A stretch of 64,000 bases of DNA from Rhodospirillales bacterium (GCA_020356105.1 CP070634.1:3611353-3675352), one strand, 5' to 3'. Counted from the first letter of the stretch, positions 5,883 through 54,362 are shown. The notes: generated by a model from the sequence alone, not told the origin. Numbers and translations are program-made.

Positions 5883-5914
5883 CTCCCTTATGCCTCCTGG
5901 CGCGCGTGCACGCC

Positions 5915-9975: not shown

Positions 9976-9991
9976 GAGGCGAGAGGGAGCG

Positions 9992-12453: not shown

Positions 12454-12643
12454 GCGCCGCCGCCATGCCGCCGACAAGCTCTTGCGCCTGCCGGGGCATG
12501 AGGAGGTCGCTCATCGCCGCAAGGCGCCGTCCTTGACTTGAATCAAGGTGGCGTCGCTGGAGCCGTGATATCGCAGGCCCACAACGTTGCGAAAAACGCA
12601 TCACGCCTCGGCGCGCGGCGGGGGTCGAGGCAGGAGATATGCC

Positions 12644-13219: not shown

Positions 13220-13318
13220 CGCGGATCGGCCCGCCCTTGACCGCATGATGGCGGCGGCGCGGCGCCGAAGTGGCCGTGCCCGCCCCGACCGGATTCATAC
13301 GGGGCGCCGGCGTTCGTT

Positions 13319-13366
13319 TCCTCATGATGAGGAGCAGCTGAAGGCCGTGTCTCGAAGCATGTGAGC
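13319..13366. repeat. REP-like imperfect palindromic element, copy 1
   Basis: The sequence tcctcatgatgaggagcagctgaaggccgtgtctcgaagcatgtgagcg lies in a convergent intergenic gap. It is related to the copies at 17288-17333 (inverted) and 17358-17400. Confidence 0.6.
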
Positions 13367-13376
13367 GTCGGCCGGC

Positions 13377-14036: not shown

Positions 14037-14152
14037 CGCCCGTGCAAAGCGGCTCCGCCTCCTGTCGTATGGGGCTCGCCGCGCCGGGCCCCGTCATCGC
14101 GCGACTTGACGCGATCCGGCCCTTCTGCCGCGGTGATGCGGCCTCCGGGCCG

Positions 14153-15936: not shown

Positions 15937-16095
15937 GGGCTTGCCGTCCCTGTGCCTGCACCGCCCGCGCGGCCGCCTTGCCGTAACGCCCGCCGATCAC
16001 CCGGCCGGCGCCGCTTACCTTCATATCAACCGCGGCGGCCCATGCAAAGCGGCTCCGGCCCCTTGCCGCGGCGGACGGCTGCGGTAGAATTCGCC

Positions 16096-17247
16096 ATGCC
16101 GTCGATCCGACCGTTCCGCATCGAAATTCCCGACGAGACCCTTGCCGCGATCCGCGCCCGGGTCGCCGCCTTTCCCTGGCACGAGATGCCCGAGGATGGC
16201 GGCTGGGGCTATGGCACCAATCTCGATTACATGAAGGAGCTGTGCGCCTACTGGGTCGATGGGTTCGACTGGCGCCGCCAGGAGGCCGCGCTCAACCGCT
16301 TCTCCCATTTCATCGCCCCGGCCGGCGGCCTCGACCTCCATTTCATCCACGAGAAGGGCAGCGGGCCGGCGCCCATGCCGCTGCTGATCGCCCATGGCTG
16401 GCCGGGCAGCATCGTCGAGTTCCTCGACGTCATCGAGCCCTTGGCCCATCCCGAGCGTTTCGGCGGAAGGGAGGAGGACGCTTTCGACGTGATCGCGCCG
16501 TCGCTGCCCGGTTTCGGCTTCTCGGGTGCCCCACCGCGCCCCTGGGGCCCGCGCCGGATGGCCGGTGCGTTCGCATCGCTGATGAACGACGTGCTGGGTT
16601 ATGACGGCTATCTCGCCCAGGGCGGCGACTGGGGCGCCGCGATCGCAAGCTGGCTCGGCCTCGAGCACGCGCCGGCCTGCCGGGCGATCCATATCAACCT
16701 GTTGACCATGCGCCACCGCGACGGACCGCAGACGCCGGAGGAAGAGGCCTGGGCCGAGCGTTTCGTGCGCGAGCAGGAAATGGAGGAGGGATACCGCACG
16801 CAGCAGGCGACCCGGCCGCAGACCCTGAGCTATGCGATGATGGACAGCCCCGTCGGCCTCGCCGCCTGGATCGTCGAGAAGTTCAACGCCTGGTCCGACA
16901 CCATCGGCGACGACATCGAGAGCGCGCATGGCAAGGACACGCTGCTGACCAACATCATGGTCTACATCGTAACCCGGACCTTCAACACCGCCTCCTGGAT
17001 CTATTACGGCCGGCGCGAGGAAGGCGGCCGCATCCTCGCGGCCGAGGGCCGGCACCGCGTCGAGGTGCCGACGGCCTGCGCCCTGTTCCCGGCCGAGATG
17101 CTGTCCTGGCCGCCGCGCTCCTATGTCGAGCGCCTTTACAACGTGCAGCGCTGGACCGAGATGCCCCGCGGCGGCCATTTTGCGGCGCTGGAGGCGCCCG
17201 ACCTGTTCATCGACGATCTGCGCGCTTTCGCCCGGCAGCTGCGCTAG
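16096..17247 (+). CDS. Epoxide hydrolase (microsomal-EH-like, with EHN N-terminal domain)
   Basis: Start at ATG 16096 (MPSIRPFRIEIPDETLAAIRARV...). Motifs are HGWPGS, the nucleophile region GGDWGA and a C-terminal His region (GGHFAALE). The upstream part of the 550-aa track ORF overlaps the divergent gene. Confidence 0.8.
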   Translation: MPSIRPFRIEIPDETLAAIRARVAAFPWHEMPEDGGWGYGTNLDYMKELCAYWVDGFDWRRQEAALNRFSHFIAPAGGLDLHFIHEKGSGPAPMPLLIAHGWPGSIVEFLDVIEPLAHPERFGGREEDAFDVIAPSLPGFGFSGAPPRPWGPRRMAGAFASLMNDVLGYDGYLAQGGDWGAAIASWLGLEHAPACRAIHINLLTMRHRDGPQTPEEEAWAERFVREQEMEEGYRTQQATRPQTLSYAMMDSPVGLAAWIVEKFNAWSDTIGDDIESAHGKDTLLTNIMVYIVTRTFNTASWIYYGRREEGGRILAAEGRHRVEVPTACALFPAEMLSWPPRSYVERLYNVQRWTEMPRGGHFAALEAPDLFIDDLRAFARQLR

Positions 17248-38710: not shown

Positions 38711-39037
38711 ATGGCCAACAAGGATCGGGACAACGGCAACGGAACCGGAACGGGTATCGTCGTCAAGGCCAAGCCAAAGACGAAGAAACCGTCGATGTAC
38801 AAGGTTCTTCTGCTCAATGACGACTACACCCCGATGGAGTTCGTCGTTCATATCCTTGAAAGGTTTTTCGGTAAGAGTAGCGAAGAGGCGACCCGCATCA
38901 TGCTGCACGTGCATCGCCGGGGTGTCGGGGTCTGCGGCGTCTACACATACGAGATCGCTGAAACCAAGGTGAAGCAGGTAATGGATTTTTCCCAACGTCA
39001 CCAGCACCCGCTTCAGTGCACGCTTGAGAAGGAATGA
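38711..39037 (+). CDS. clpS: ATP-dependent Clp protease adaptor ClpS
   Basis: [25 protein letters not shown]...[27 protein letters not shown]. Confidence 0.95.
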
Positions 39038-41337
39038 CCGCCGTGCCATCGCGTAATCTTGAGGACACCATCCACCGCGCCATGGATTTCGCCACCGAGC
39101 GGCGGCACGAGTTCGTCACGCTCGAGCATCTGCTGCTCTCCCTGGCCGAGGATCAGGACGCGGTCGCGGTCTTGCGGGCCTGCGATGTCGATCTCGACAA
39201 GCTGCGTGAAGATCTCTGCAATTACCTGGACAACGATCTGGATTATCTGATCAGCGACAGCATGTCGGATCCGCGTCCGACCGAGGGCTTCAACCGGGCC
39301 CTGCAGCGCGCCATGATCCACGTCCAGTCGTCCGGCCGCGAAGAGGTCACCGGGGCCAACGTGCTGGTGGCGATCTTCTCCGAGCGTGAAAGCCACGCCG
39401 TCTATTTCCTGCAGGAGCAGGACATGACCCGGTTCGACGCGGTAAATTATATAAGCCACGGGATCGCGAAGGTGGCAGGTCTCAGCGAGACGCGCGGTGT
39501 TGAGGGCGCGGACGAGGAGGCCAGCAACGAGCGAGTGAATCGCAAGGGCACCGAGGCGCTAGACGCGTATTGCGTCGATCTGAACCGGAAGGCCGCGAAG
39601 GGTCGGATCGACCCGCTGATCGGCCGCCAGGACGAAGTGGAGCGGACCATCCAGGTGCTGTGCCGCCGCCAGAAGAACAATCCCCTCTATGTCGGCGATC
39701 CGGGAGTCGGCAAGACAGCGATCGCCGAGGGCCTGGCCCGCCGCATTGTCAATGGCGAGGTTCCGGACGTCCTCAAGAAGGCAACGATCTTCGCCCTGGA
39801 CATGGGCGCCCTGCTTGCCGGCACCCGCTATCGGGGCGATTTCGAAGAGCGCCTCAAGGAGGTCCTGCGCGAGCTGGACGAGATGGAGGGCGCGATCCTG
39901 TTCATCGACGAGATCCACACGGTCATCGGGGCCGGCGCGACGAGCGGCGGGGCGATGGATGCCTCCAACCTGCTGAAACCTGCGCTGGCCAGCGGCACGC
40001 TGCGGTGCGTCGGCTCAACCACTTACAAGGAATTCCGCAACCATTTCGAGAAGGACCGGGCGCTGGTGCGGCGGTTCCAGAAGATCGATGTGGCGGAGCC
40101 GACGGTCGAGGATTCGGTCAAGATCCTTAAGGGCCTGAAGCCATATTATGAGAAGCACCACAAAGTGCGATACACGGCCGAGGCGATCCGCGCCTCGGTC
40201 GAGCTGTCCGCCCGCTACATCCACGACCGGAAGCTTCCGGACAAGGCCATCGACGTGATCGACGAGGTCGGCGCGGCGCAGATGCTGCTGCCCGAATCGC
40301 GGCGCAAGAAGACGATTTCGGTCAAGGATGTCGAGGCGGTGGTCGCGAAGATCGCGCGCATTCCGCCGAAATCGGTGTCCAAGGACGACACCAAGGCGCT
40401 GCAGAAGCTGGAGCGCGACCTGAAGACCGTCGTGTTCGGCCAGGACAAGGCGATCTCCGCGCTGTCGAGCGCGATCAAGCTGGCCCGCGCCGGTCTGCGC
40501 GAGCCCGAGAAGCCGATCGGCTGCTATCTGTTCTCGGGCCCGACCGGCGTCGGCAAGACCGAGGTCTCGCGGCAGCTCGCCCACATCATGGGCATCGAGC
40601 TGCATCGATTCGACATGTCGGAATACATGGAGCGCCACAGCGTCAGCCGGCTGATCGGCGCGCCGCCGGGCTATGTCGGTTTCGACCAGGGCGGGCTGCT
40701 CACCGATGCGATCGATCAGCACCCGCATGCGGTACTGCTGCTCGACGAGATCGAGAAGGCGCATCCGGATCTGTTCAACATCCTCCTGCAGGTGATGGAC
40801 CACGGCAAGCTGACCGACAACAACGGCAAGACCGTCGATTTCCGCAACGTGATCCTAATCATGACGACAAATGCCGGGGCAGCTGACCTCGCCAAGCCGG
40901 CCATCGGGTTCGGGCGCGAAAAGCGGGTCGGGGACGATGAGGACGCGATCAACCGGATGTTCACGCCCGAGTTCCGCAATCGCCTTGATGCAATCATCGG
41001 CTTCGTTGCACTTGAGCCCGAGATCGTAACCCGGGTCGTGGACAAGTTCGTGATGGAGCTCGAAGGACAGCTCGCCGACCGCAACGTGACCATCGAGCTC
41101 AGCGACGATGCCCGCAACTGGCTGGCCGAACGGGGCTATGATCCGGCCTTCGGGGCACGTCCGCTCGGCCGCGTCATCCAGGAGAACATCAAGAAGCCGC
41201 TGGCCGAGGAGCTGCTGTTCGGCAAGCTTGCCAAGGGCGGGCTCGTGCGGGTCGAACTCAAGGACGGCAAGCTCGTGTTCAGCTATCCGCCGGCCGAAAC
41301 CGGCAAGTCCAAGGTGCCGGTCCCGGTCGAGAGCTGA
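39034..41337 (+). CDS. clpA: ATP-dependent Clp protease ATP-binding subunit ClpA
   Basis: 767 aa. ATG overlaps the clpS TGA. It has two AAA+ modules ([15 protein letters not shown]; [15 protein letters not shown]). Confidence 0.95.
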
Positions 41338-42989: not shown

Positions 42990-43159
42990 TCGCTACACAG
43001 GATAGGCCGTCGCGCGGTGCCGGCAAGGGTCCAGCGGCGCTTGGCGGCGAGCCGACTTGACATCGGGGACGGTGGCTGCCGATCATCCCGCGCGGGAGCG
43101 CGGCATGATCCGGAGGGGATGGCTTATGAAATCGGAACTGGTGCGGTTCGGAGAGGCCG

Positions 43160-43852: not shown

Positions 43853-44482
43853 TTACGGCCCCGGCGGCGCACCGGTGCTTCGCGCGGCGTCCCGCAGTAA
43901 TGTGCGAACGGCGCGACGGTTTCGGTCGTCGAGCCATTTCTCGAAGGTGATGTGCAGCCAGCCAACAGCCAGGTAGGCGAGCGAGACCGCCAGCATCTTC
44001 GAGCCGGACAGCAGGATCGTCGGCGGAATTCCGGCGATCGCGGCCCATGCGACGGTGCCTGCCAGCGCCGCGATGATCGCAAGACCGAGGAAGGCGAATC
44101 CCGACGTCAGATACGCATAGTACATGACCGCAAGGGTGGGCCGCAGCCTGTAGCGTCCGCTGATCGCAACGCCGCCGTCCTCACGCGCCGCGATGTGACC
44201 GGAGAAATAATAGGAACCGGGCCCGATCGGCCAGATCGGAGCACGCGTGCGGTGCTTCAGGGTCACCCGGCCATCGCGCACCCGCCCCACGAACGGCCGG
44301 TTGAACCACAGCCTGGGCAGGGTCAGCAGAAGCGGCAGGCCGTTATCTGCGATCGCCTCGACGGCGGCGACAAATTCCGCACGGGTCGCAGGTCCGACAA
44401 ATCGCCAGGCCTCTTCGCGGAAGAAGCGCCGACGCTGCCATTCGAGGATCCCGCGCAGCGGCCAGGGAAGGTGTTCAATCAT
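43853..44482 (-). CDS. Hypothetical membrane protein
   Basis: Start chosen at ATG 44482 (MIEHLPWPLRG...). The C-terminal half has 2-3 TM helices (LAVMYYAYLTSGFAFLGLAIIAALAGTVAWAAIAGI; MLAVSLAYLAVGWLHI). It lies 100 nt downstream of the alpha-E gene on the same strand. Confidence 0.45.
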   Translation of the reverse strand: MIEHLPWPLRGILEWQRRRFFREEAWRFVGPATRAEFVAAVEAIADNGLPLLLTLPRLWFNRPFVGRVRDGRVTLKHRTRAPIWPIGPGSYYFSGHIAAREDGGVAISGRYRLRPTLAVMYYAYLTSGFAFLGLAIIAALAGTVAWAAIAGIPPTILLSGSKMLAVSLAYLAVGWLHITFEKWLDDRNRRAVRTLLRDAARSTGAPPGP

Positions 44483-44584
44483 CCCCCGTTTGTGCGCCGC
44501 CACCGGTTGCGGATCGGTAAACGAACGCAAAGGCGTCCAGCCGTCCGGCACGCAACCGGCCCTCAATCGACGATATGGCGCGGC

Positions 44585-45523
44585 TCAGGCCGGCGCCGTC
44601 ACCCGGAAATAGGTGTCGGCGATGCAGTCGTGGAGTTCGCCCATCATGATCTGCAAATCGTCGATGAACCGGTTGAGATTGCGCTGCTCCAGCGTCTCGA
44701 GATCCGCGTCGGATACGGCCCGGCGCAAGCGCCGGATGATGCCGATTGCCTTCTGCTTACGCGGCAGCCGCGCGAGGCAGCGTTCAATTTCGCCGAGGCA
44801 GTGGAAGATGGCGCGCGGGAAATCTTCATCCTTCAAAAGATACTCGAGCACATAGATGCGCCGGACCGACTGGTCCACATGCTGCCGGTACATCTGGTAC
44901 CCGGACAGCGATTTCAGGACACTCACCCACTGGATCGTCTCGAACGGCCGCAGCCCGCCGCCCTGGTCCGACAGGAGGTCGGCCGAGCGGACGTCGATGA
45001 TCCGGCTGGTCATGTCCGCGCGTTCCAGATTGCGACCCATGCGAAGGAAATCGAAGCCGATATCCTGGCTCATCGTGCCGGCGAGCAGCCCGGTGATGGT
45101 CTGCGCCCCGTTTATGATCGACCGGAGATACTGGTCGCGATCGGGGAGCAGCTCGCCCTTCTTGAGCTGGCGCGCGGCGAGCGCATGCAGGCCGCTGATC
45201 TGTTCCCATGCTTCGCGCGGCATGATGTCCCGCATTGTCCGCGCATTTTCCCGCGCGCTGCGCAGGCTGCCGATGATCGATGCCGAATTGCGCTCGTCGC
45301 TCACCAGGAAGGCGACGACATTCTTTTCGCTGGGCGCGCGATAGAGCTTGCGAAACATGCGCGCGCTGCCCGTAATCGCGATCAGCGGCTCCCACCCGGT
45401 GCGGGCCCGGGCCGGCAGGTCGAGCTGCAAATGGCCGTTGACGCTGACCATGCGGGCGGTGTTCTCGGCCCGTTCGATGTAGCGAGCCAGCCAGTACAGG
45501 TTTTCCGCAACACGTGAAAGCAT
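44585..45523 (-). CDS. Alpha-E domain protein (DUF403)
   Basis: True start at ATG 45523 (MLSRVAENLYWLARYIERAENTARM...), sharing one base with the upstream TAA (TAATG). FLRMGRNLERADMTSRIID is typical. The upstream part of the 662-aa track ORF overlaps the ATP-grasp gene in another frame. Confidence 0.8.
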   Translation of the reverse strand: MLSRVAENLYWLARYIERAENTARMVSVNGHLQLDLPARARTGWEPLIAITGSARMFRKLYRAPSEKNVVAFLVSDERNSASIIGSLRSARENARTMRDIMPREAWEQISGLHALAARQLKKGELLPDRDQYLRSIINGAQTITGLLAGTMSQDIGFDFLRMGRNLERADMTSRIIDVRSADLLSDQGGGLRPFETIQWVSVLKSLSGYQMYRQHVDQSVRRIYVLEYLLKDEDFPRAIFHCLGEIERCLARLPRKQKAIGIIRRLRRAVSDADLETLEQRNLNRFIDDLQIMMGELHDCIADTYFRVTAPA

Positions 45524-46983
45524 TACGCGTCCCCCGTCTCGTCCACGATCCAGGTGTCTTTGCTGCCGCCGCCCTGCGAGGAGTTGACCACGGTCGATCC
45601 CTTGACCAGCGCGACGCGGGTCAGGCCGCCGGTCGTAACCGATATCTCCCTGCCGGACAGGATGAACGGCCGCAGGTCGACATGGCGCGGCTCGGCGTGG
45701 CTGTCGACCAGGGTCGGCACTGTCGAGAGCGTCAGCATCGGTTGGGCGATATACTCGCGCGGCTTGGCCATGATCTTGCGGGCGAACGATTCGCGTTCCT
45801 TGCGGCCGGCTTGCGGGCCGATCAACATGCCATAGCCGCCAGATTCGTTGGCCGGCTTGACCACCAGCTTCTCGAGGTTGGCGAGCGCGAATTTCCTGTC
45901 GTCCGGCTCCATGCAGCGGTAGGTGGGGACATTGGGAATGATCGCGTCCTGGTCGAGATAGTAGCGGATCATTTGCGGCACATATGCATAGACCACCTTG
46001 TCGTCGGCGACCCCGGCTCCCGGGGCGTTGACGAGCGTCACGGTGCCCTTCTTCCAGGCCCGCATCAGGCCGGGCACGCCGAGCATGGACTTGGGATTGA
46101 AGGCCTCCGGGTCCAGGAACAAATCGTCGATCCGGCGGTAGATGACGTGGACACGCTCGGCACCGTGCACCGTGCGCATGAACACCCGGTCCCTGTCGTC
46201 GACGAAGAGGTCCGAGCCCTGCACCAGCTCCGCCCCCATCTGCTGGGCGAGATAGGCGTGCTCGAAATAGGCGGAATTGTATATGCCGGGCGTCAGCACG
46301 ACGACCTCGGGGCGCTTGACGGTCCGCGGCGCCACCGATATCAGCATCTCGAGCAGCTGTGAGGGGTAATCGTCGACCGGCAGGATGTTGTAGTTCTCGA
46401 ACAGCCCCGGAAACACGCGCTTCATGACCTGCCGGTTCTCGAGCATGTAGGATACGCCCGACGGCACGCGCAGATTGTCTTCCAGCACGTAGAACGTGCC
46501 GTCCTTGTCGCGCACGAGATCTGAGCCACAGATATGGGCCCAGATACCGAGCGGCGGGTTGATCCCGACACATTGCGGCCGAAAATTCCTTGATTTCGCA
46601 ATCACTTCCGCCGGAAACACCTTGTCCTTTACGATCTTCTGCTTGTGGTAGATGTCATCGATGAACAGGTTCAGCGCCCGCACGCGCTGGCGAAGGCCTT
46701 CCTCGATGCGGCTCCAATCGCTGGCGGCGATCACCCGCGGAATGATATCGAACGGCCAGGCCCGATCGATGCTGCCCCCTTCCTTCTGCGAGTAGACGGT
46801 GAAGGTGATGCCCATCGTCTGGATCGCGAGGTCGGCAGCCGCCTTGCGCTGGCGGATCGCCTCGTCGCTGAGCTTCGAGAGCCGGTTGCCCAGGGTCCTT
46901 GCCGCAGGGCGAAGACGTCCCCCCGGCGTGACCAACTCGTCGAAGACACCGGACGCCGGGTAATCCCGCCAGCGGATTGTCAT
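45523..46983 (-). CDS. Circularly permuted ATP-grasp type 2 protein (DUF404/DUF407)
   Basis: Start at ATG 46983 (MTIRWRDYPASGVFDELV...). Conserved stretches are WPFDIIPRVI, FYVLEDNLRVPSGVSYMLENR, VNAPGAGVADDKVVYAYVP, KPANESGGYGM and GGGSKDTW. Confidence 0.85.
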   Translation of the reverse strand: MTIRWRDYPASGVFDELVTPGGRLRPAARTLGNRLSKLSDEAIRQRKAAADLAIQTMGITFTVYSQKEGGSIDRAWPFDIIPRVIAASDWSRIEEGLRQRVRALNLFIDDIYHKQKIVKDKVFPAEVIAKSRNFRPQCVGINPPLGIWAHICGSDLVRDKDGTFYVLEDNLRVPSGVSYMLENRQVMKRVFPGLFENYNILPVDDYPSQLLEMLISVAPRTVKRPEVVVLTPGIYNSAYFEHAYLAQQMGAELVQGSDLFVDDRDRVFMRTVHGAERVHVIYRRIDDLFLDPEAFNPKSMLGVPGLMRAWKKGTVTLVNAPGAGVADDKVVYAYVPQMIRYYLDQDAIIPNVPTYRCMEPDDRKFALANLEKLVVKPANESGGYGMLIGPQAGRKERESFARKIMAKPREYIAQPMLTLSTVPTLVDSHAEPRHVDLRPFILSGREISVTTGGLTRVALVKGSTVVNSSQGGGSKDTWIVDETGDA

Positions 46984-47105
46984 GCCGTATTGCCTTCCCG
47001 AAAGATTGATTGCGATCGAGTCTATAGATATAGGTTTGTATTGCAATTTTCCGCAGTGCCCGCAATGACGAGATCGGGCGCGGCGGCGCGCCGGAGGGCT
47101 GGACA

Positions 47106-47870
47106 GTGACCTATTGCCTCGCCATTCAACTGGACAAGCACCTGGTTTTCGCAGCCGATTCGCGAACCAGCGCCGGCGTGGACAATGTTACCGTCTACAG
47201 CAAGATGCACAGGTTGCCGCTCGGCGAGGATCGGTTGTTCGTGATGCTGACCGCGGGCAACCTCGCGACCACGCAGGCGGTTCTGAGCCGTATCCAGCGT
47301 GACCTCGACAACCCCCACGCCGAGGAGAGCCTGCGCACGGCGGACTACCTGTTCGATGCGGCCCACTATATCGGCCGGATCAGTCGACACGTCCAGGCGG
47401 AGCATTCGGAAGCGTTTGTCGAGCACCAGGGCAATCTTGAGGCCAGCTTCATTCTGGGCGGGCAGATCCGCGGCCGGCCCCACAATATCTACCTGATCTA
47501 TCCGCAGGGCAATTGCATCACGGCCTCGCCTAAGGCGCCATTCCTGCAAATCGGCGAGACCAAATACGGCAAGCCGATTCTCGATCGCGTCATCACGCCC
47601 GAGACATCGCTCGGCGACGCGATCCGCTGCGCGTTGATGTCGATCTCCTCGACCATGCGCAGCAATATTTCCGTCGGCCCGCCCGTCGAGGTCGCCGTGT
47701 ACGAGCGCGATACCTTCGCCGTCGCGCGCCACATGATCCTCGACTACGATTCACGTCTGCTGCTGGACATGGAGGACAGCTGGAGCCAGGGGCTCAGGCG
47801 GGCCCTGTCGGAACTGCCCCGTTTCGAGTGGGAGGAAGAGTCGGGTCCGCGCGAGGTGCAGTCGCGATAA
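47106..47870 (+). CDS. Anbu (ancestral beta subunit) proteasome-type peptidase
   Basis: GTG start followed directly by Thr (M)TYCLAIQLDKHLVFAADSRTSAG. Motifs TAGNLATTQ, YLIYPQGN and QIGETKYGKPILDR match my memory of Anbu sequences. Confidence 0.8.
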   Translation: MTYCLAIQLDKHLVFAADSRTSAGVDNVTVYSKMHRLPLGEDRLFVMLTAGNLATTQAVLSRIQRDLDNPHAEESLRTADYLFDAAHYIGRISRHVQAEHSEAFVEHQGNLEASFILGGQIRGRPHNIYLIYPQGNCITASPKAPFLQIGETKYGKPILDRVITPETSLGDAIRCALMSISSTMRSNISVGPPVEVAVYERDTFAVARHMILDYDSRLLLDMEDSWSQGLRRALSELPRFEWEEESGPREVQSR

Positions 47871-48921
47871 TTTCCCTGACCAGCGCGAGCTTCTCGGCGA
47901 CCGTCGCCGAGATTGCGAACGGGTAGGCGTCGGGCAGCCCCATGCTGCGATTGAGATCGTTGAGCGCGACCGTCAATTCGTGCCAGTCGGTCAGGGATTC
48001 CTGAAGCCAGGTCGTCGGATCGGCGGGCATCCCCCCGATCGCCCGGCCGCGGACGGAAAGATTCAGATCCTCGGCGGTTTCCAGCGTATCGACCATATGC
48101 AGGTAGTGGGCCCAGGTCTCGGCCCAGTCTTCCCATGGATGGGCGGCGGCGTAGGCGCTGATATGGCGCGCCGGCCATTTCTCGGGCGGCCCGTCCCGGT
48201 AATAGCCCGCGAGCGCTTCGTCGTAATCCGTTCGTTCGTCCCCGAACAGGGTGCGGAACGGCGCCAACCACGCGGTATCACGGACCAAAAGGTCCCAGTA
48301 GTAATGCGCGATCTCGTGACGAAAATGGCCAAGCAGCGTGCGGTATCCCTCATTCAGGTTCTCGCGCATCCGCTCGCGCGCACCGGGGTCCGCCTCCTCG
48401 ATATTGATGGTGATGATCCCGTGCCGGTGCCCCGTCAGGATCCGGTGCTGGTCCCCCGCGGGATTCGAGAATTCGTCCGCCAGGGGCGCCGCATCGCGAA
48501 GAAATTCAAACGCCAGGCCCGCGTCGCCATCGACCGACTTGCCGAACACCGGGAGCCCGAGCGCGTCGAGGGTATAGACCAGCCGCCGCTTGGCGCGCTC
48601 GACGCGCAGCCAGAACCTACGGTTCTCCGGCACGCCGAGATCGGGAATCGTCCGGTTGAGGCGGCACGCATGGCAGAACGCATCATGGTCGTCGGCCGGG
48701 ATCATCCAGTTGCAGACCTGTTCCGGCTCATAATTCCGGCATTTGCGGTAGCGTCCGCCCGAACCGCCGGTCGTCGCCGGGGACCACAGATCGTCAGCCT
48801 CATGCTGCAGGGTGACGATTCGGCGATGCTCGGGCAGATATCCGACTTCGCGCCCGCAGTGAACGCAGACCGTGTTCTCGAAATAGAGGCGGTTGCCGCA
48901 ATGGCAATGAAACGTCTTCAT
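47794..48921 (-). CDS. Putative zinc metallopeptidase with N-terminal zinc-ribbon (HExxH family)
   Basis: 375 aa. The N-terminus is FHCHCGNRLYFENTVCVHCG...CHAC. The HExxH motif lies in GHFRHEIAHYYW. The downstream HPWEDWAETWAHY is typical of the 'zinc-binding metallo-peptidase' family. Its 3' end overlaps the Anbu 3' end by 77 nt. Confidence 0.75.
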   Translation of the reverse strand: MKTFHCHCGNRLYFENTVCVHCGREVGYLPEHRRIVTLQHEADDLWSPATTGGSGGRYRKCRNYEPEQVCNWMIPADDHDAFCHACRLNRTIPDLGVPENRRFWLRVERAKRRLVYTLDALGLPVFGKSVDGDAGLAFEFLRDAAPLADEFSNPAGDQHRILTGHRHGIITINIEEADPGARERMRENLNEGYRTLLGHFRHEIAHYYWDLLVRDTAWLAPFRTLFGDERTDYDEALAGYYRDGPPEKWPARHISAYAAAHPWEDWAETWAHYLHMVDTLETAEDLNLSVRGRAIGGMPADPTTWLQESLTDWHELTVALNDLNRSMGLPDAYPFAISATVAEKLALVREIIATAPRADPTLPPTRNGAVPTGPA

Positions 48922-49099
48922 CCGGCGTATTTCAATTCCAGGGCGTGATGTGCCGTTCAGGCAATACGGCAGAGCGGCACGGGCGTCAAACCTTCTTGAT
49001 CCGTCATGCGCATCTGCCGGACCAGGCTCCGCGGCGGGATGTCGCCGACGACCGCGCTTGTCCTGCGATCCTCGGAGCGAGTCAGCTGTCCGACCCGAT

Positions 49100-49256
49100 C
49101 AAATAATATAGATTTATATCAAAATATCGAGATATTATTTTCAAAATAAAAGAAAATGCTAATAAAATTATCAAATATATTTATTTTATTCTCCTTACAT
49201 AAATTCTTTCAGTGCCATACACTTCACGTTGAGAAATTTTTAATAAATGAATTATT
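49100..49256. promoter_or_regulatory. AT-rich island upstream of FecR paralog 1
   Basis: About 155 nt of mostly A/T in a GC-rich context. It contains the inverted repeat AATATC-ga-GATATT (49123-49136) and repeated TATCAAA(A)TAT motifs (49116-49127, 49169-49180). Confidence 0.5.
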
Positions 49257-49286
49257 GGGCCCTTGGTCCGGACATCGGGGGATATC

Positions 49287-50132
49287 ATGAGTCGCATTGG
49301 AAATCGCGGTGACCTCGGCCACGCTAGCTGGAAGAACGTGGCGGGCGTGCTGCTCATCAGTTGTCTTGCCGGGCTGGCGCCGGCGGTTGCCGCTGGCGGC
49401 CACTGGACGTTGGCGGCCGTCGATGGCACCGTCATGGTCTTCGCTCCCGGAGAAGACGACGCCGAGGCGAAACGGGGCTATCCGGTCGTCGTCGGCGCAA
49501 CCGTGGTTACGGGAGACGATGGTACCGCCACTCTGGTGCGACGCGGTGACAGCATCACCATCTCGCCTAACAGCGAGGTGACAATCCCGGACACGTCGGG
49601 CCTCGGCCATCTCGGTGTCGTGCAGAGCCTGGGCAAGCTGCTGTTCCGCATGGAAACGCGCGACTCCTACAATTTTGAAGTCAGAACGCCGTTTCTCGCG
49701 GCAACCGTGAAGGGCACGGTGTTCACCGTGGAAGTGGCGCAGAACCAGGCGACCGTGTCTGTCGACGAGGGGATGGTCCGCGTCGTGCCCGCGCGCGGCG
49801 GGCGCAGTGACATGGTGCGTGCCGGATACCGGGCTTCGGTGACGGCGGCCCGCTCCAACGAGGTTGCGGTCGAGAACGTATCAGGCCGTGGCGGTTCGCC
49901 CGCGACCAGCGCCGGCGGGCGCGGCAAAGGCAACGCGGGCGGCGATCGCGGTTCTTCCGGCAACCGTGGCGGCAATTCGAAGGGCGTCGGCGCGAAGGGT
50001 GGCGGTCCGAACGGCGGCGGTCCGAACGGCGGTGGTTCCAATGCTGGCGGCGCCGGTGTTGGCGGCTCGCCGGGCGACGACTCGCAGGGCGACGACTCGC
50101 AGGACGACGACGCCCAGGACGATCAGCAATAG
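49287..50132 (+). CDS. FecR-domain secreted protein, paralog 1, with Gly/Asn/Asp-rich repetitive tail
   Basis: ATG 49287 (GGGGGA upstream) with a signal/anchor (VAGVLLISCLAGLAPAVAAG). The FecR-like core is ...GDDGTATLVRRGDSITISPNSEVTI...FEVRTPFLAATVKGTVFTVEV.... Confidence 0.7.
   Translation: MSRIGNRGDLGHASWKNVAGVLLISCLAGLAPAVAAGGHWTLAAVDGTVMVFAPGEDDAEAKRGYPVVVGATVVTGDDGTATLVRRGDSITISPNSEVTIPDTSGLGHLGVVQSLGKLLFRMETRDSYNFEVRTPFLAATVKGTVFTVEVAQNQATVSVDEGMVRVVPARGGRSDMVRAGYRASVTAARSNEVAVENVSGRGGSPATSAGGRGKGNAGGDRGSSGNRGGNSKGVGAKGGGPNGGGPNGGGSNAGGAGVGGSPGDDSQGDDSQDDDAQDDQQ
50001..50117 (+). repeat. In-frame 15-nt tandem repeats in FecR paralog 1 tail
   Basis: ggcggtccgaacggc x2 exact (50001-50030) plus a degenerate third unit. 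ggcgacgactcgcag x2 exact (50073-50102) plus a degenerate unit. They encode GGPNG and GDDSQ repeats. Confidence 0.8.
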
Positions 50133-50438: not shown

Positions 50439-51314
50439 ATGCTGTATTCTGGACATCGCAGCTACCCGCTTCATACCCGCTGCATGACATGGGCGGTTGC
50501 AGTTTTGGTTTCGGGCCTGGTGGGATGCAAATCGGTGGCCGCGGCCAGCGCCGACTGGACGATGGCGGTCGTGAACGGCGCCGCCATAGTGCTTGGCCCC
50601 GGCGGCGCGGGGCAGGTGGCAAGGCCGGGGTCTCCGATCTTGGCCGGCACGACATTGGTGACCGGCGATGATGGGATGGTGACGCTGGCGCGCCGCGGCG
50701 ACACGATCACGGTCTTTCCGAACAGCGAGATAACGATCGCGGATGAGTCGGCCGGTGAAGGGTCGGCGGTGACGCAAGGCTATGGTCGGCTGCAGTTCGA
50801 GCTGAACACCTTGGGGTCGCAGGATTTCCGGATCGAGACGCCTTATCTTGCCGCGAGCATGCAGGGGACGCTCTTCACCGTCGTGGTCTCGCGCGACGAT
50901 GCATCGTTGTCCGTCTCGGACGGCGTTGCCCGCGTCGCCACACGCAGTGGCGCGCGCGCGTTGACGGTACAGCAGGGCTGGGCCGCGGTGGCGCGGATCG
51001 AAAGCGGCGTGGTCGAACTGGCCGTGGGCCGTACGGGCGACGGTGGCGAGCTTGTCGAAGCGAGCCAGCTGGCGCCCGCCAGCGCCGCCGCCACGCAGCC
51101 CTCGGCGGCCGGGCCGAGCCGGGGCAAGGCGGCCTCCGGCCAGTCGTCAGGCGGTGGATCTTCGGGCGACAGCTCATCGCGGGACGAGGGATCGGCCGGC
51201 AAGGACAATGGCAAGGACAATGGGCGCGACAATGGTAAGGACAACGGCCGCGACAATGGGCGCGACAATGGCCGGGATAACGGCCGGGACAATGGCAAGG
51301 GACGCGATAAATAG
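50439..51314 (+). CDS. FecR-domain protein, paralog 2 (possible lipoprotein), with (DNGK/R)n tail
   Basis: ATG 50439 (GGGGGA upstream, as for paralog 1). It has a lipobox-like LVSGLVGC. The core is collinear with paralog 1 (GDDGMVTLARRGDTITVFPNSEITI...FRIETPYLAASMQGTLFTVVV). Confidence 0.7.
   Translation: MLYSGHRSYPLHTRCMTWAVAVLVSGLVGCKSVAAASADWTMAVVNGAAIVLGPGGAGQVARPGSPILAGTTLVTGDDGMVTLARRGDTITVFPNSEITIADESAGEGSAVTQGYGRLQFELNTLGSQDFRIETPYLAASMQGTLFTVVVSRDDASLSVSDGVARVATRSGARALTVQQGWAAVARIESGVVELAVGRTGDGGELVEASQLAPASAAATQPSAAGPSRGKAASGQSSGGGSSGDSSSRDEGSAGKDNGKDNGRDNGKDNGRDNGRDNGRDNGRDNGKGRDK
51204..51299 (+). repeat. In-frame 12-nt tandem repeat x8
   Basis: gacaatggcaag / gacaatgggcgc / gacaatggtaag / gacaacggccgc ... 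encode DNGK DNGR DNGK DNGR DNGR DNGR DNGR DNGK. Confidence 0.85.
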
Positions 51315-51506
51315 CGCCGTCGCCGCGACGGACCGCAGGGGTCGTGTGATGAAGACGGCGCGAGGTGAACCAGGATGTCAGGTGGCTGACCAAGAGGCGG
51401 TCGTGCAAACCGCGGATTGGAGCGCCTGAAAAAAACAACAAGGCGCGGGGCGAAAACCCGTTGCCAATCGCAGCAGGGGGGCGGCGGCGCCGTCGGTCGA
51501 TACGGT

Positions 51507-54362
51507 ATGGAGCACGGGACGAACAGACGCATGAGCGCAGATCCGACCACCACGAGAGGGTTGGGCCGCCTGCAGAGGCGTTGGGCTGTGCAGTTGGCGG
51601 CCCTCTTGCTGTCGGCGACGGTGTTCCTGATGGGCGGTTTTGATCCGCTGGAGCGTGCGCTCGTCGATCTGCGCTTCGAGCTGACCGGGCGCGATGCATC
51701 GGGCGAGCTCGTGATCGTGGCGATCGACCCCGAGAGCCTGCGGCAACTCAGCGTCTGGCCGTGGCCGAGGACGCATCATGCGGCCGTGGTCGACCGGCTG
51801 GTTGAGGCCGGTGCGGCCCGCATAGCTCTCGACATCGATTTCAGCTCGGCCTCGGACCCGGCGGCGGACGCCGCCCTTGCCGACGCCCTGGCCGGCGCAC
51901 CGGGACGCGTTATTCTGCCCGTGTTTCGCCAGAACGTGGCGCCCGCGGACGGACGGAGCGAAGTCGTCCACACGGCGCCGCTGCCATCGCTGCGGCGTCA
52001 TGCCCGTCTCGCATCGGTTAGCGCGGTCCCCGACGCCGACGGCCTCATCCGTCGCCATTCGATGAACGATTTCTGGCGTGAGCGGCTGGTGCCGACCATG
52101 CCGGGAGCGCTGACCGGCTGGACGTCCGCCTCGGCCGAGATATTCCACATCGATTACGGCATCCGTCCGGAATCGATCCCGATGGTCTCTTATGTCGACG
52201 TGATGCGGGGGCGTATCGATCCGAACCAGATCAGGGGCAAGGCGGTCATCGTCGGGGCGACCGCGGTGGAGCTGGGCGACGTGTATGCCGTGCCCCTGTA
52301 CAAGGCGCTGCCAGGGCCTGTCGTGCAGGCCCTTGCCTACGAATCGCTGGTGCAGGAGCGGACCTTGTACCGCGTTGCCGAATGGGTCGTCCTGTTCGGC
52401 GCCGCGCTTGTCGCCATCGGATTCGGGCGCCGTTTTCAGGCGTGGTCGTGGCGCCGTGGCGCGATTGTCCTTCTGGCCTTCACTGTGTCGCTGTTTGCCC
52501 TGGCCCTCGGCGCCCAGGCGGTGTTTCCCGTGCTCCTTGAACTGACGCCGTGTGCGGCTGTCGCGATCATGCTTTACGGAACCGCCCTCGTTCGTCGAAT
52601 CGACCGTCAGGAGCTCGTCCTGACCCTGCGCGGCAACCGGATGCGCCGTAACAACGCCTTGATGCGCAGCGTCGTGGAGAACAGTTCCGAAGCCATCCTG
52701 ACGATATCGGACGGCCTGATCATCGAACTCGTGAATCCGGCGGCCGCGCGCATGTTCGGCGAGGAGGCAAGCGAACTGACGGGCAGGGAGCTGGACGTGA
52801 TCCTTCCCGCCGTGAAGAATCGTGAAACTCTCGATGCCTGGCATGATAACGCCGAGCCGGGCATCGAGCTGCAGGCGATCGCGCGGGACGGCACCGGCTT
52901 CGAGATCGAGGCGATGGTCGACAAGATGTCGCTCGACGGCACCTGCCATTACATCCTCGTTGCGCGCGACATCACCGAACGCAAGGCGCAGCAGAACCTT
53001 CTCGAGTATCTGGCGCTGCATGATCCGCTGACCAGCCTGCCCAACCGCACCTTGTTGATGGACCGGCTCGACCATGCCATTGCCGCCTCGAAACGGAGCG
53101 GCAGCCAGCTCGCATTGCTGATCCTCGATCTCGACAGGTTCAAGGAGATCAATGATACGCTGGGTCATGGTGTCGGCGACTCCCTCCTGATCGCCGTCGG
53201 CCAGACACTCGGGGCCCCGCTGCGGGCATCGGATACGGTCGCGCGCCTGGGGGGGGATGAATTCGCGATCCTGCTGCCCGCGGTTTCCGGCCTCGAAGTC
53301 GCCCGCGACGTTGCGGAGCGGATTGCGGTGGCGACGAGCCAGCCGTTCCAGGTCGAGGATCTGACACTCGAAGTGGGCGTTTCGATCGGCGCCGCCCTCT
53401 ATCCCGATCACGGCGACAGCGCCGCGGAGCTGATGCGCGCGGCGGACGTTGCCATGTACGTGGCGAAGCGGGACGCCACGACCATCGCCATCTACGACGA
53501 GGACAGGGACCACAACAGCGTCCGCAACCTGTCCCTGGGCGGTGAACTGCGGCGCGCCATGGACGAGGACGAGCTCGTTCTCTTCTATCAGCCGCAGATC
53601 GAGCTAGCCGGCGGTCGACTGTCCAGCGCCGAGGTGCTGATCCGCTGGGACCATCCGCGGTACGGTCTGGTCCCACCGGTCGAGTTTATCACCCTGGCTG
53701 AGCAATCCGGGCTCATCGGTCCGTTGACCCGATGGATCCTGCGCTCCGCGCTCGCGCATCTCGGTGCCTGGCAGAGCGAGGGCTACGAGATCGGGCTGGC
53801 GGTGAATCTTTCCCCGCGCAACCTGCTCGAAGAGGATCTCGCGAGTTCGGTTGAGGAGCTTCTGGAAGTCCACTCGATCAAAGCCGACACCCTGACGCTC
53901 GAAATCACCGAAGACGCGATCATGACCGATCCCGAGCGCGCCCTAGGCGTGATCGGCAAACTCAGGGCGCGCGGCGTGCGCATCGCGATCGACGATTTCG
54001 GCACCGGCCATTCCTCGCTCGCCTATCTGACGACCCTGCCGGTGGACGAACTCAAGATCGACAAATCCTTCGTTCTGAACATGGGCGACCGCGGCACCGA
54101 TGCGCTGATCGTGCGCTCGATGATCGAACTGGCCCATGATCTGGATCTCAGCGTGGTGGCGGAGGGCATAGAGGACGAATCGGTTCTCGACTCGTTGCGC
54201 GAGCTCGATTGTGATGTCGGCCAGGGCTACCACATCGGCCGCCCGATGCGGCGCGAGGCGTTCGACCGCTGGATGCGCGCGCAGTTCGCTGCCGACACCG
54301 AGGAGGCAACGCGAGCTGCCGCTCCCGCGACGGCGCAACGCCGCACGGCGGCGCGGGGATAG
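51507..54362 (+). CDS. CHASE2-TM-PAS-GGDEF-EAL signalling protein (c-di-GMP turnover)
   Basis: Periplasmic CHASE2-like N-terminus (LVIVAIDPESLRQLSVWPWPRTHHAAVVDRL..ARIALDIDF), then TM helices and a PAS domain. The GGDEF domain is intact and has an RxxD I-site 5 aa upstream (RASDTVARLGGDEF). The EAL domain has EVLIRW, DDFGTGHSSL and KIDKSFV. Start is ATG 51507 or 51531 (the track starts at TTG 51417). Confidence 0.85.
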   Translation: MEHGTNRRMSADPTTTRGLGRLQRRWAVQLAALLLSATVFLMGGFDPLERALVDLRFELTGRDASGELVIVAIDPESLRQLSVWPWPRTHHAAVVDRLVEAGAARIALDIDFSSASDPAADAALADALAGAPGRVILPVFRQNVAPADGRSEVVHTAPLPSLRRHARLASVSAVPDADGLIRRHSMNDFWRERLVPTMPGALTGWTSASAEIFHIDYGIRPESIPMVSYVDVMRGRIDPNQIRGKAVIVGATAVELGDVYAVPLYKALPGPVVQALAYESLVQERTLYRVAEWVVLFGAALVAIGFGRRFQAWSWRRGAIVLLAFTVSLFALALGAQAVFPVLLELTPCAAVAIMLYGTALVRRIDRQELVLTLRGNRMRRNNALMRSVVENSSEAILTISDGLIIELVNPAAARMFGEEASELTGRELDVILPAVKNRETLDAWHDNAEPGIELQAIARDGTGFEIEAMVDKMSLDGTCHYILVARDITERKAQQNLLEYLALHDPLTSLPNRTLLMDRLDHAIAASKRSGSQLALLILDLDRFKEINDTLGHGVGDSLLIAVGQTLGAPLRASDTVARLGGDEFAILLPAVSGLEVARDVAERIAVATSQPFQVEDLTLEVGVSIGAALYPDHGDSAAELMRAADVAMYVAKRDATTIAIYDEDRDHNSVRNLSLGGELRRAMDEDELVLFYQPQIELAGGRLSSAEVLIRWDHPRYGLVPPVEFITLAEQSGLIGPLTRWILRSALAHLGAWQSEGYEIGLAVNLSPRNLLEEDLASSVEELLEVHSIKADTLTLEITEDAIMTDPERALGVIGKLRARGVRIAIDDFGTGHSSLAYLTTLPVDELKIDKSFVLNMGDRGTDALIVRSMIELAHDLDLSVVAEGIEDESVLDSLRELDCDVGQGYHIGRPMRREAFDRWMRAQFAADTEEATRAAAPATAQRRTAARG

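Follow-up and report, generated by a model that had tools for sequence, protein, structure and literature searches.

Introduction

The closest described relatives of the locus analysed here are the Anbu operons, in which a circularly permuted ATP-grasp protein (COG2308), an alpha-E protein (COG2307), a transglutaminase-like protein (COG1305; PF01841 / PF08379) and the proteasome-like protein Anbu are encoded by four co-directional genes, with Anbu last (Valas and Bourne 2008, PMC3235984; Iyer et al. 2009; Fuchs et al. 2017, PMC5666114; Piasecka et al. 2018, PMC6376114). Rather than closing into a barrel, Anbu assembles as an open split ring (PMC8665760), and this open, multi-site ring, together with the binding of proteasome inhibitors, has been taken as a sign of processive protein or peptide degradation (PMC5666114). 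Published work found neither peptidase activity of purified Anbu nor stable complexes among the proteins of the canonical operon (PMC6376114). A larger type of amidoligase cluster combines a transglutaminase-DUF2126 fusion, itself a predicted amidoligase, with a fused ATP-grasp/alpha-E protein and a small transglutaminase, as exemplified by the NtrC-dependent genes BCAM1233-1236 of Burkholderia cenocepacia (PMC5491218).

Here we describe a locus within a 64-kb window (the whole stretch of 64,000 nucleotides that was analysed), which is part of a 3.86-Mb contig from a Rhodospirillales metagenome-assembled genome. Positions 44585-48921 form a self-contained cassette of four genes, which represents a real and recurrent variant of the Anbu locus, a system that had been predicted before.

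Results

Table 1. Features of the cassette and its immediate surroundings (positions in the window)
Feature	Position	Strand	Basis or remark
Membrane ORF	43853-44482	-	no Pfam family; hydrophobic C-terminal half
Alpha-E protein, 312 aa	44585-45523	-	PF04168, E 1.5e-87
Circularly permuted type-2 ATP-grasp amidoligase, 486 aa	45523-46983	-	PF14403, E 2e-168; PF04174, E 1e-144
Divergent intergenic region ligase/Anbu, 122 nt	46984-47105	.	sequence
Anbu, Anbu-1 type proteasome-like Ntn hydrolase, 254 aa	47106-47870	+	PF00227, E 9e-9
Anbu/Mx 3'-end overlap, 77 nt	47794-47870	.	gene coordinates
Mx peptidase, 375 aa	47794-48921	-	PF10005, E 5e-32; PF15887, E 8e-98
Candidate Mx promoter, TTGACG, 17 nt, TATTGC	48961-48989	-	conservation; ends ~40 nt upstream of the ATG

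When the coordinates were read again, all five genes were located where a preliminary description of this DNA had placed them (Table 1). The ATP-grasp ligase gene is followed by that for alpha-E, Anbu diverges from the ligase, and the gene for a zinc-ribbon and HExxH peptidase (PF10005 plus PF15887), for which we use the working name Mx, converges on Anbu. Three of the four protein families are thus those of the canonical operon, and both arrangements have an Anbu of the Anbu-1 type with intact catalytic residues, a translationally coupled ligase and alpha-E pair situated beside Anbu (122 nt away in the window), and no AAA+ partner gene in the cassette. In contrast to the canonical operon, the window carries the peptidase gene where the transglutaminase-like gene would be, and its Anbu gene is divergent from the ligase and convergent with the peptidase instead of being the last of a co-directional series. 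The large amidoligase cluster has the same ligase and alpha-E families, but its DUF2126, its fused ligase/alpha-E and its transglutaminase are lacking in the window, which has Anbu instead. The term non-canonical, previously applied to this locus, is appropriate only relative to the published four-gene operon; the layout is not rare. None of the cassette proteins matched a PADLOC model of anti-phage defence at E <= 0.01.

The window Anbu was matched to the solved Anbu structures 5loy, 5nyj, 5nyf, 5lox and 5nyw with E-values from 2e-77 to 2e-54, the best match being the designed Anbu-1 consensus protein 5loy (E 2e-77), followed by the four natural structures (E 2e-59 to 2e-54). The structure alignments span residues 1-243, including the C-terminal extension. 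The GTG start with a threonine directly behind it could be read from the window sequence (GTG-ACC), meaning that Anbu has no propeptide and that Thr is the first residue past the GTG. This GTG start is kept in the relatives L088-L090. The catalytic residues Thr1, Asp17 and Lys32 are intact in the translation, and T2, D18 and K33 (precursor numbering) are invariant among 12 aligned Anbu sequences. The S1 pocket of Anbu-1 is amphiphilic (T20, F30, T48, L52 and S55 in Pa-Anbu), while that of Anbu-2 is basic (PMC5666114). Judged from its alignment to 5loy, the window pocket (T20-Y30-T48-L52-T55) fits the amphiphilic Anbu-1 type and not the basic Anbu-2 type.

The start of the ligase was assigned to the ATG at 46983, because its relatives of 484-486 aa align from residue 1. 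The proposed translational coupling was confirmed by reading the sequence, in which the stop of the ligase and the start of alpha-E share the sequence TAATG; coupling of this type was also seen in L001, L002, L088 and L089. The coordinates likewise agree with the 122 nt given earlier for the spacer between Anbu and the ligase, which presumably holds promoters for both directions. Partly conserved blocks are present in this spacer across four relatives, and a promoter scan of it gave no sigma-54 or sigma-70 consensus match. For Mx, a candidate promoter was recognised by conservation: neither TTGAC nor TAT.GC varies between the window and L088-L090, while the surrounding sequence diverges. It was not matched by the consensus scanner, and its role as the Mx promoter is a suggestion from the sequence. 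No plausible small ORF was detected in the intergenic regions, and no tag-protein or precursor-peptide gene in the cassette. Finally, Anbu and the peptidase gene are opposed, as had been described, yet they are not merely convergent, since their 3' ends overlap, and an overlap of 77-80 nt recurs in L088-L090.

Both Pfam assignments of Mx exceed the gathering scores, at 327 bits (cut-off 27) and 111 bits (cut-off 23.4), with the zinc ribbon preceding the peptidase domain. Among the 120 homologues listed, both domains are recorded in all but P0032, a shorter protein of 304 aa with PF15887 alone. The N-terminal part forms a double zinc ribbon with Cys 6, 8, 19 and 22 and Cys 61, 70, 83 and 86. 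The preliminary description of a convergent HExxH peptidase of this length was right, but the single Cys4 ribbon it assigned is two Cys4 sites with eight invariant cysteines. In the C-terminal part, the HExxH motif (H202-E203-x-x-H206) is followed by the invariant stretch HPWEDWAETWAHYLH; the invariant block downstream of the motif is acidic and histidine-rich. H202, E203, H206 and the eight cysteines do not vary when 14 sequences that share 51-69% identity with the window Mx are aligned. The metal-binding and catalytic motifs of Mx are intact. As far as can be judged from its residues, the N-terminus bears no resemblance to a signal peptide. An AlphaFold2 model of Mx had a mean pLDDT of 78 and a pTM of 0.82. 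Searching with this model, Foldseek returned the putative zinc peptidase 4l7a as a weak match below significance (E 0.027), and further weak, non-significant matches to leukotriene A4 hydrolase and lethal factor. No solved relative was detectable by sequence or profile search. Since the fold-search scores are not significant, the zincin fold of Mx is predicted mainly from the motif and the Pfam family. This prediction is in line with that of Lenart et al. (2013), who regarded DUF2248 (PF10005) as zincin-like, with anthrax lethal factor as the closest structural template; MtfA is given this template, too, in their table (PMC3650047). Mx has the invariant HExxH in common with these zincin-like peptidases, and differs from them in carrying the N-terminal eight-cysteine double zinc ribbon. 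No characterised member of the Mx family, with zinc-dependent peptidase activity, was found in the literature searched.

The apparent absence of a transglutaminase-like component was borne out across the 64-kb window. Here, tblastn searches using five transglutaminases (three small, two large) yielded only matches with E > 0.3, and an HMM based on 71 transglutaminase sequences had no match at E <= 1e-3, also just beyond the neighbourhood. These searches reached ~44 kb on one side of the cassette and ~15 kb on the other, and the negative result for transglutaminase and DUF2126 applies to the window. Among the other loci with both Anbu and Mx, several of them on short contigs, a transglutaminase-DUF2126 gene was found alongside in L125 and L175 and no transglutaminase was detected in the rest. 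Conceivably, a transglutaminase or transglutaminase-DUF2126 gene located elsewhere in the genome acts in trans, with Mx as an extra accessory hydrolase. L125 and L175 would be in agreement with this, as would the 17 of 80 genomes in which Mx directly adjoins clusters of transglutaminase-DUF2126 and fused ligase/alpha-E genes (in Paraburkholderia, Caballeronia, Saccharospirillum and others), and Valas and Bourne noted that, where Anbu does not share an operon with the genes of the canonical set, they are usually in the same predicted regulon (PMC3235984). Nonetheless, we consider an action in trans rather unlikely in view of the transglutaminase-free flanks of the cassette within the window, the separate clade formed by the ligase, alpha-E and Anbu of Mx loci (see below), as expected of a separately evolving system, and the position of Mx in several loci. 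In at least eight loci (L057, L125, L146, L151, L159, L175, L027 and L078), Mx is located directly 3' of alpha-E and in the same direction, which is the transglutaminase slot of canonical operons (reference order from L086, L091-L093 and L095-L097). The idea that the peptidase takes the place of the transglutaminase thus applies to the Anbu/Mx subfamily, at times down to the exact operon slot, but not universally: as Mx adjoins transglutaminase-DUF2126 clusters in other genomes, it is no universal substitute for transglutaminase domains, and beside such clusters it may add to transglutaminase function instead of replacing it.

Relatives with an Mx that is only ~55% identical were found to share these four genes and their layout. 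A search based on Mx delivered 80 species-level loci, of which 37 contain genes for ligase, alpha-E, transglutaminase or DUF2126 at a distance of up to 10 kb, and Anbu is present in 10 of these 37. Independently of Mx, an Anbu-based search showed that Mx adjoins Anbu in 17 of the 80 closest metagenomic Anbu loci. The comparison of Anbu neighbourhoods that had been proposed earlier thus revealed a strong co-occurrence of the two genes. Their tail-to-tail orientation is seen in all 33 other loci with both genes, their distance is within ~200 nt in 31 of the 33, and their 3' ends overlap in 15 of the 33. In neighbour-joining trees, calculated without support values, the sequences of Anbu, ligase and alpha-E from Mx loci branch separately from their counterparts in transglutaminase operons, and the Anbu-linked Mx proteins group together. 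Sequence identities show the same division: the window Anbu is 38-43% identical to canonical Anbu proteins, as compared to 50-62% among the more distant Mx-type loci, and the window ligase is 86-91% identical to those of L088-L090 and 66-77% to those of Mx-linked loci beyond its own lineage, as compared to 48-56% for canonical transglutaminase operons. By these tree and sequence comparisons, the parts of the cassette evolve together.

It could be argued that Mx is an unrelated neighbour whose adjacency is functionally meaningless, as 43 of the 80 Mx genes lack a system gene within 10 kb and the window Mx lies on its own strand with, apparently, its own promoter. This is highly improbable, and already largely refuted, since the adjacency recurs across several phyla and proteobacterial classes (Alpha-, Beta- and Gammaproteobacteria, Nitrospirota, Acidobacteriota and others), with an invariable orientation relative to Anbu, clustering of the components in trees, and joint gain or loss of the four genes. 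Furthermore, an ATP-grasp gene was observed near Mx in 30 of 80 cases, against ~2% or fewer of random 21-kb stretches by our own estimate, which assumes that a genome carries a few such ATP-grasp genes. Recurrence, orientation and trees together identify the zinc peptidase as a genuine conserved partner and not a chance neighbour, as had been proposed.

The borders of the cassette became evident from close relatives. L179-L182 keep a backbone of FecR, membrane ORF, DUF938, FemAB-like and ClpA genes without any of the four cassette genes, whereas all four are present in the window and L088-L090. The four genes are thus gained or lost as a unit. The ClpS-ClpA genes at 38711-41337 belong to the backbone and occur also in relatives without the cassette, which itself has no unfoldase gene of its own. 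The membrane ORF had been taken as a possible sign of a membrane-associated variant, with the adjacent membrane protein anchoring or partnering the system. It does follow alpha-E as described, at 102 nt and not 100 nt, and this proximity on the same strand, in the window and in L088, is the sole point in favour. The ORF belongs to the flanking backbone, and hence not to the system: it holds the same chromosomal position beside DUF938 in the cassette-less L179-L182, it is missing from the cassette-bearing L089, none of the 160 loci in two collection scans (L005-L084 and L099-L178) has it, and its family comprises just 48 clusters, all from close relatives. A membrane-associated system is therefore exceedingly improbable and, for practical purposes, refuted.

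Discussion

Our analysis places the cassette in a distinct and widespread subfamily of Anbu / circularly permuted ATP-grasp / alpha-E systems. The stable partner in these systems is an HExxH peptidase, predicted to be cytoplasmic and of the zincin type, in place of the small transglutaminase-like (papain-fold) protein. Metallopeptidases hydrolyse, and a thioester intermediate for transamidation is beyond them. Displacement by such an enzyme suggests that the third component acts as a peptidase or amidase and not as a cross-linker, which hints that hydrolysis is also the job of the missing transglutaminase-like partner. In the mechanism that we envisage, the ligase with alpha-E would use ATP to form an acyl-phosphate and would then extend a peptide or protein carboxylate by an amide-linked amino acid or peptide. 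Mx would supply the hydrolytic step that otherwise comes from the transglutaminase-like cysteine enzyme, trimming, maturing or removing the linkage, and Anbu, as a Thr1 Ntn hydrolase assembly, would cut the resulting peptide or protein substrate. An Mx-type cassette working by this ligase-hydrolase-Anbu mechanism is, on balance, our favoured explanation of the locus as a whole.

A comparable logic is known from Actinobacteria, where the Pup-proteasome system consists of the glutamine-synthetase-like ligase PafA, the deamidase/depupylase Dop and the 20S proteasome. By analogy, an ATP-dependent amide ligase, a hydrolase of the linkage and a protease of the proteasome family are encoded together in both cases. 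However, the ligase folds are unrelated and Anbu is an open split ring, not a closed barrel (PMC8665760). Moreover, the small tag gene and unfoldase that mark Pup- or ubiquitin-type tag-and-degrade loci were not found in the cassette, which has no detectable Pup-like tag gene and no Mpa-type unfoldase. The comparison is an analogy only. Instead of tagging proteins, the cassette might make and recycle a small conjugate of peptides or amino acids, such as a storage compound or a metabolite related to nitrogen, with the ligase building the conjugate and Mx and Anbu as the peptidases that break it down. Besides the missing tag-protein or precursor-peptide gene, and an unfoldase represented only by the ClpS-ClpA genes a few kb away, this would be consistent with the behaviour of related transglutaminase-type clusters. 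These are among the genes most strongly induced under nitrogen limitation, in an NtrC- and sigma-54-dependent manner (PMC5491218, PMC5666114 and, as a note added in proof, PMC3235984), and their domains co-vary with urea-metabolism genes in marine metagenomes (PMC3597751). The intergenic regions of the window cassette, however, contain no sigma-54 motif, and the architecture and inhibitor binding of Anbu have been read as processive degradation (PMC5666114). We regard a small conjugate as possible but doubtful.

Returning to the ligase-hydrolase-Anbu mechanism, we tentatively propose that Mx and the transglutaminase-like cysteine enzyme could be interchangeable hydrolases of one ancient modular machine, of which the Mx cassette might be the minimal portable form. 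A peptide or amino-acid mark would be attached, Mx would edit it, and the split ring of Anbu would receive the substrates for cleavage. If this is true, non-orthologous displacement would decide the long-standing question of whether the "transglutaminase" in Anbu operons is a cross-linking or a cleaving enzyme, and the compact cassette would be the best entry point to the substrates of Anbu.

The Anbu cassette and its zinc peptidase

The cassette comprises genes for the proteasome-like protein Anbu, a circularly permuted ATP-grasp ligase, an alpha-E protein and Mx, a 375-residue peptidase with a zinc ribbon and an HExxH motif, in a window of ~65% G+C. Pfam searches bore out the identity of each gene as previously proposed, except that the neighboring membrane ORF belonged to no family, and the earlier coordinates of all ORFs proved exact. 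NCBIfam held no informative models for any of the five proteins. The TAATG overlap of the ligase and alpha-E genes and the 122-nt spacer between the divergent Anbu and ligase genes were present in the sequence, as claimed. The membrane ORF does adjoin the alpha-E gene, at a distance of 102 nt rather than 100 nt. Likewise, Anbu and Mx are convergent, and beyond this their 3′ ends share 77 nt. This overlap measures 77–80 nt in the close relatives L088–L090. Judged from this layout, convergent overlapping transcription might cause interference in the expression of both genes. Solved Anbu structures matched the Anbu of the window with E-values of 2e-77 to 2e-54. In this protein, the GTG start is followed at once by Thr, Asp17 and Lys32 are present, and the residues at the S1-pocket positions (T20, Y30, T48, L52 and T55) correspond to the Anbu-1 type of Fuchs et al. 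(PMC5666114).

Features of the window and of comparison loci
Feature	Sequence	Position	Strand	Remark
ClpS-ClpA	window	38711-41337
DUF938/FemAB-like gap	window	42990-43159		170 nt
Membrane ORF	window	43853-44482	-	no Pfam family; hydrophobic C-terminal half
Alpha-E	window	44585-45523	-	PF04168, E 1.5e-87
Circularly permuted ATP-grasp	window	45523-46983	-	PF14403, E 2e-168
Anbu/ligase spacer	window	46984-47105
Anbu	window	47106-47870	+	PF00227, E 9e-9
Anbu/Mx 3′ overlap	window	47794-47870		77 nt
Mx peptidase	window	47794-48921	-	PF10005, E 5e-32; PF15887, E 8e-98
AT-rich segment	window	49090-49260		~170 nt
Stretch with sigma-70-like matches	window	49103-49212
FecR-domain gene 1	window	49263-50132
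FecR-domain gene 2	window	50439-51314
CHASE2-PAS-GGDEF-EAL gene	window	51417-54362
HerA-like ATPase	L088	6108-7661		DUF87/HerA_C
HerA-like ATPase	L089	15020-16582		DUF87/HerA_C
HerA-like ATPase	L179	8275-9849		DUF87/HerA_C
Ligase, alpha-E, Mx operon	L027 (SKGM01000028.1)	3004-6543
Locus with two Anbu paralogues	L085 (NZ_CP005987.1)	4368-16126
Transglutaminase-DUF2126, piece 1	L085	8803-9627
Transglutaminase-DUF2126, piece 2	L085	11043-13499

Alignment of 14 Mx sequences, 51–69% identical to the window protein, revealed two invariant Cys4 sites (C6, C8, C19, C22 and C61, C70, C83, C86), an invariant H202-E203-x-x-H206 and the invariant block HPWEDWAETWAHYLH. The zinc ribbon noted before is thus real, but it holds eight invariant cysteines instead of a single set of four. 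As judged by eye from the sequence, the N-terminus was unlike a signal peptide. In an AlphaFold2 model (pLDDT 78, pTM 0.82), the N-terminal ribbon region was rich in beta structure and the catalytic domain was helical. The best Foldseek match in the PDB was weak (putative zinc peptidase 4l7a, E 0.027), with leukotriene A4 hydrolase and anthrax lethal factor lower in the list, and neither sequence nor profile searches found a solved relative. A zincin-like fold was predicted for DUF2248 by Lenart et al. from a lethal-factor template (PMC3650047).

Absence of a transglutaminase-like gene from the window

When Pfam-confirmed small and large transglutaminases from related loci were used as tblastn queries, nothing better than E 0.3 was found in the window. 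Furthermore, a transglutaminase HMM built from 71 sequences, which recovers the transglutaminase genes in 53 comparison loci, gave no match at E ≤ 1e-3 within the 64 kb. Both searches therefore agree with the preliminary description that this component is missing here, and no such gene lies just outside the neighborhood within the 64-kb range. A transglutaminase may be encoded elsewhere in this genome.

Linkage of the peptidase to the Anbu system

Gene neighborhoods were taken from homologues of the window's Anbu and Mx. Homologues of Mx number in the thousands (at least 8000 candidates). Two of these, only 55% identical and located on contigs of 486 kb and 178 kb, have the arrangement of the window, with Mx convergent on a proteasome-like gene that is followed by ATP-grasp and alpha-E genes, without a transglutaminase. 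When an Mx alignment was run against GTDB species, each represented by a single genome, 80 loci emerged. They came from Alpha-, Beta- and Gammaproteobacteria, Nitrospirota, Acidobacteriota, Planctomycetota, Verrucomicrobiota, Polyangia and further lineages, and were classified from their 10-kb flanks. Anbu, ligase and alpha-E genes without a transglutaminase accompanied Mx in nine loci, Anbu with an alpha-E fragment on a short contig in one, and the ligase and alpha-E genes only in four. In 17 loci we found the large cluster of a transglutaminase-DUF2126 fusion, a fused ligase/alpha-E and a small transglutaminase, the members of which were verified by Pfam in L018 and L032. A transglutaminase-DUF2126 gene or transglutaminase domain lay near Mx in another six, a class resting on HMM or tblastn matches only, some of them partial. 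The flanks of the remaining 43, of which 13 were short contigs, contained no system gene. The zinc peptidase thus co-occurs with the system: 37 of the 80 loci (46%) were linked to the amidoligase network versus ~2% or less by chance, our own estimate that assumes a few such ligase genes per genome. One locus, L027, carries a ligase, alpha-E and Mx operon whose products share 55%, 31% and 49% identity with their counterparts in the window, on a contig from the bin of a Methanomethylophilaceae archaeon; either the bin is contaminated or the operon reached an archaeon by horizontal transfer.

Independently of Mx, metagenomes were scanned with an Anbu alignment. Comparison of the closest 80 loci (43–61% identity) showed Mx adjoining Anbu in 17. 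A transglutaminase-DUF2126 gene was nearby in 18 (two of these also with Mx), a small transglutaminase was present in five and the ligase pair only in 14, while in 28, including 19 short contigs, none was detected. Anbu and Mx were tail-to-tail in the window and in all 33 loci with both genes, at a distance of at most ~200 nt in 31 and with an overlap in 15. The gene order of the window was common to 21 loci. In six others the order ligase, alpha-E, Mx was convergent on Anbu; these six, L027 and L078, eight in all, have Mx directly 3′ of alpha-E, where canonical operons carry their transglutaminase gene. We checked this canonical arrangement on plasmids or chromids of Klebsiella, Ralstonia, Acinetobacter, Caballeronia, Methylobacterium, Paracoccus and Limimaricola, and it was present there.

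Other Anbu arrangements were also seen. L085, on an Acidithiobacillus caldus megaplasmid, is a large-cluster-type locus without Mx, with two Anbu paralogues in the vicinity of ntrC/glnL and transposases; its transglutaminase-DUF2126 gene, apparently in two pieces, precedes the ligase and alpha-E genes. Solitary Anbu genes occur in L087 and L098 (Azospirillum brasilense plasmids) and L094 (Microvirga), where ligase, alpha-E, transglutaminase and Mx are all absent within 8–9 kb. Those of Azospirillum adjoin amidohydrolase and ABC-transporter genes.

Outside the window's own lineage, the ligases of Mx-type loci were 66–77% identical to that of the window versus 48–56% for canonical transglutaminase operons; the corresponding values were 41–59% versus 26–36% for alpha-E and 50–62% versus 38–43% for Anbu. 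Neighbor-joining trees of the three proteins, which lack support values and should be taken as indicative, placed an Mx-type clade apart from the transglutaminase-operon clade, with the transglutaminase-DUF2126-linked Acidithiobacillus caldus locus inside or beside the former. Ligase pairs with Mx but without Anbu also fell in the Mx-type clade, except those of L027, L049 and L063. In the equally indicative Mx tree, the Anbu-linked peptidases formed one large and one small group, apart from most solitary and large-cluster Mx proteins. The identities and the trees indicate that the cassette components diverged together.

Gain or loss of the cassette as a unit

In L088–L090 (Mx 62–76% identical), the same cassette lies between the same backbone genes, with FecR and GGDEF/EAL genes on one side and DUF938, FemAB-like and ClpA genes on the other. 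Members of the small membrane-ORF family (48 clusters, each with at least 43% identity, no Pfam family) yielded four informative loci, L179–L182, with the backbone FecR ... membrane ORF, DUF938, (HerA-like), FemAB-like, ClpA and ClpS, and none of the four cassette genes. We therefore conclude that Mx, Anbu, ligase and alpha-E were gained or lost together. The membrane protein, earlier regarded as a possible component of the system, is retained in these cassette-less relatives, missing from L089 despite its cassette, and without relatives in the 160 loci of both collection scans. It is therefore a backbone gene and was rejected as a cassette component. The same relatives carry ClpS-ClpA; this pair likewise belongs to the backbone, and was consequently ruled out as the missing unfoldase.

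Only short, chance-level repeats and no mobility genes flank the cassette, and PADLOC defense models gave no matches. L088, L089 and L179 have a HerA-like ATPase gene between the DUF938 and FemAB-like genes; the gap at this position in the window is only 170 nt, so the gene is absent there. Beyond Mx, two tandem FecR-domain genes encode proteins with low-complexity Gly/Asn/Asp-rich tails (e.g. repeated GRDNG/KDNG units). The CHASE2-PAS-GGDEF-EAL gene lies downstream of this pair, and the trio is syntenic in relatives.

Promoters and non-coding sequence

Upstream of Mx, the element TTGACG-17 nt-TATTGC is conserved in four relatives, which suggests that Mx has its own promoter. The segment between Mx and the first FecR gene is very AT-rich compared with the 65% G+C genome. 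Its counterparts in L088–L090 are also AT-rich, with unconserved sequence, and the sigma-70-like consensus matches of the region were confined to a stretch within it. The Anbu/ligase spacer holds the short blocks TATATCTATAGA and GCAATCAAT, conserved in four relatives; none of the known promoter consensus sequences could be recognized in this spacer. The sigma-54/NtrC motif TGGCAC-N5-TTGCW (≤ 2 mismatches) was absent from the cassette intergenic regions and matched 17 times in the window versus 21.7 expected. Terminator-like matches were at chance level, and Rfam identified no RNA family across the whole window.

Discussion

Our comparisons, all of them genomic, established which genes the cassette contains, that its catalytic motifs are intact, that the linkage and orientation of its genes are conserved and that these genes are gained or lost as a unit. 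ATP-grasp enzymes make amide bonds via acyl-phosphates. Probably, the ligase and alpha-E modify a peptide or protein through an amide linkage, Mx would perform the hydrolytic step done elsewhere by the papain-fold 'transglutaminase-like' protein, and Anbu would then cleave the resulting substrate. Since a zincin cannot carry out thioester transamidation, the displacement would favor a role of the third component as a peptidase or amidase. The ligase of the Yersinia operon releases phosphate from ATP (PMC6376114), and purified Anbu, for which no substrate is known, binds proteasome inhibitors (PMC5666114).

Expression of the canonical cluster rises under nitrogen limitation (PMC5666114, PMC5491218, PMC3235984), and no small ORF that could plausibly encode a tag or a precursor peptide was present in the intergenic regions. 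The main alternative, a small-peptide or nitrogen-metabolite pathway instead of protein tagging, seems to us possible but less likely, and we prefer the sequence of ligation, hydrolysis by Mx and cleavage by Anbu.

The operon was described only with a transglutaminase by Valas and Bourne 2008 (PMC3235984), Fuchs 2017 (PMC5666114), Fuchs 2021 (PMC8665760) and Piasecka 2018 (PMC6376114), and in reports on domains of unknown function (PMC3597751) and the NtrC regulon (PMC5491218); none of the six mentions a metallopeptidase. Our literature search on PF15887/DUF2248/COG4307 and the Anbu system found no paper describing this association. The variant of the known, predicted Anbu system thus appears new, although the key comparative study, Iyer et al. 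2009, outside that search, may list Mx as a neighbor. Far from being exotic, the layout with Mx is widespread, and many public genomes already contain it without its having drawn comment.

Whether the transglutaminase-like partner is a cross-linker or a peptidase has been asked since 2008–2009. The unrelated hydrolase in its place provides a comparative argument for a hydrolytic role, and the uncharacterized PF15887/PF10005 peptidase family, with its thousands of members, gains a first functional context. Several crystal structures of Anbu exist, yet to our knowledge it has been assigned no substrate, activator or physiological role. As the partner is replaced within a compact, self-contained unit of four genes (4.4 kb), the cassette lends itself to heterologous expression, in which catalytic-trap versions of Mx (E203A) and Anbu (T1A) could reveal its products.
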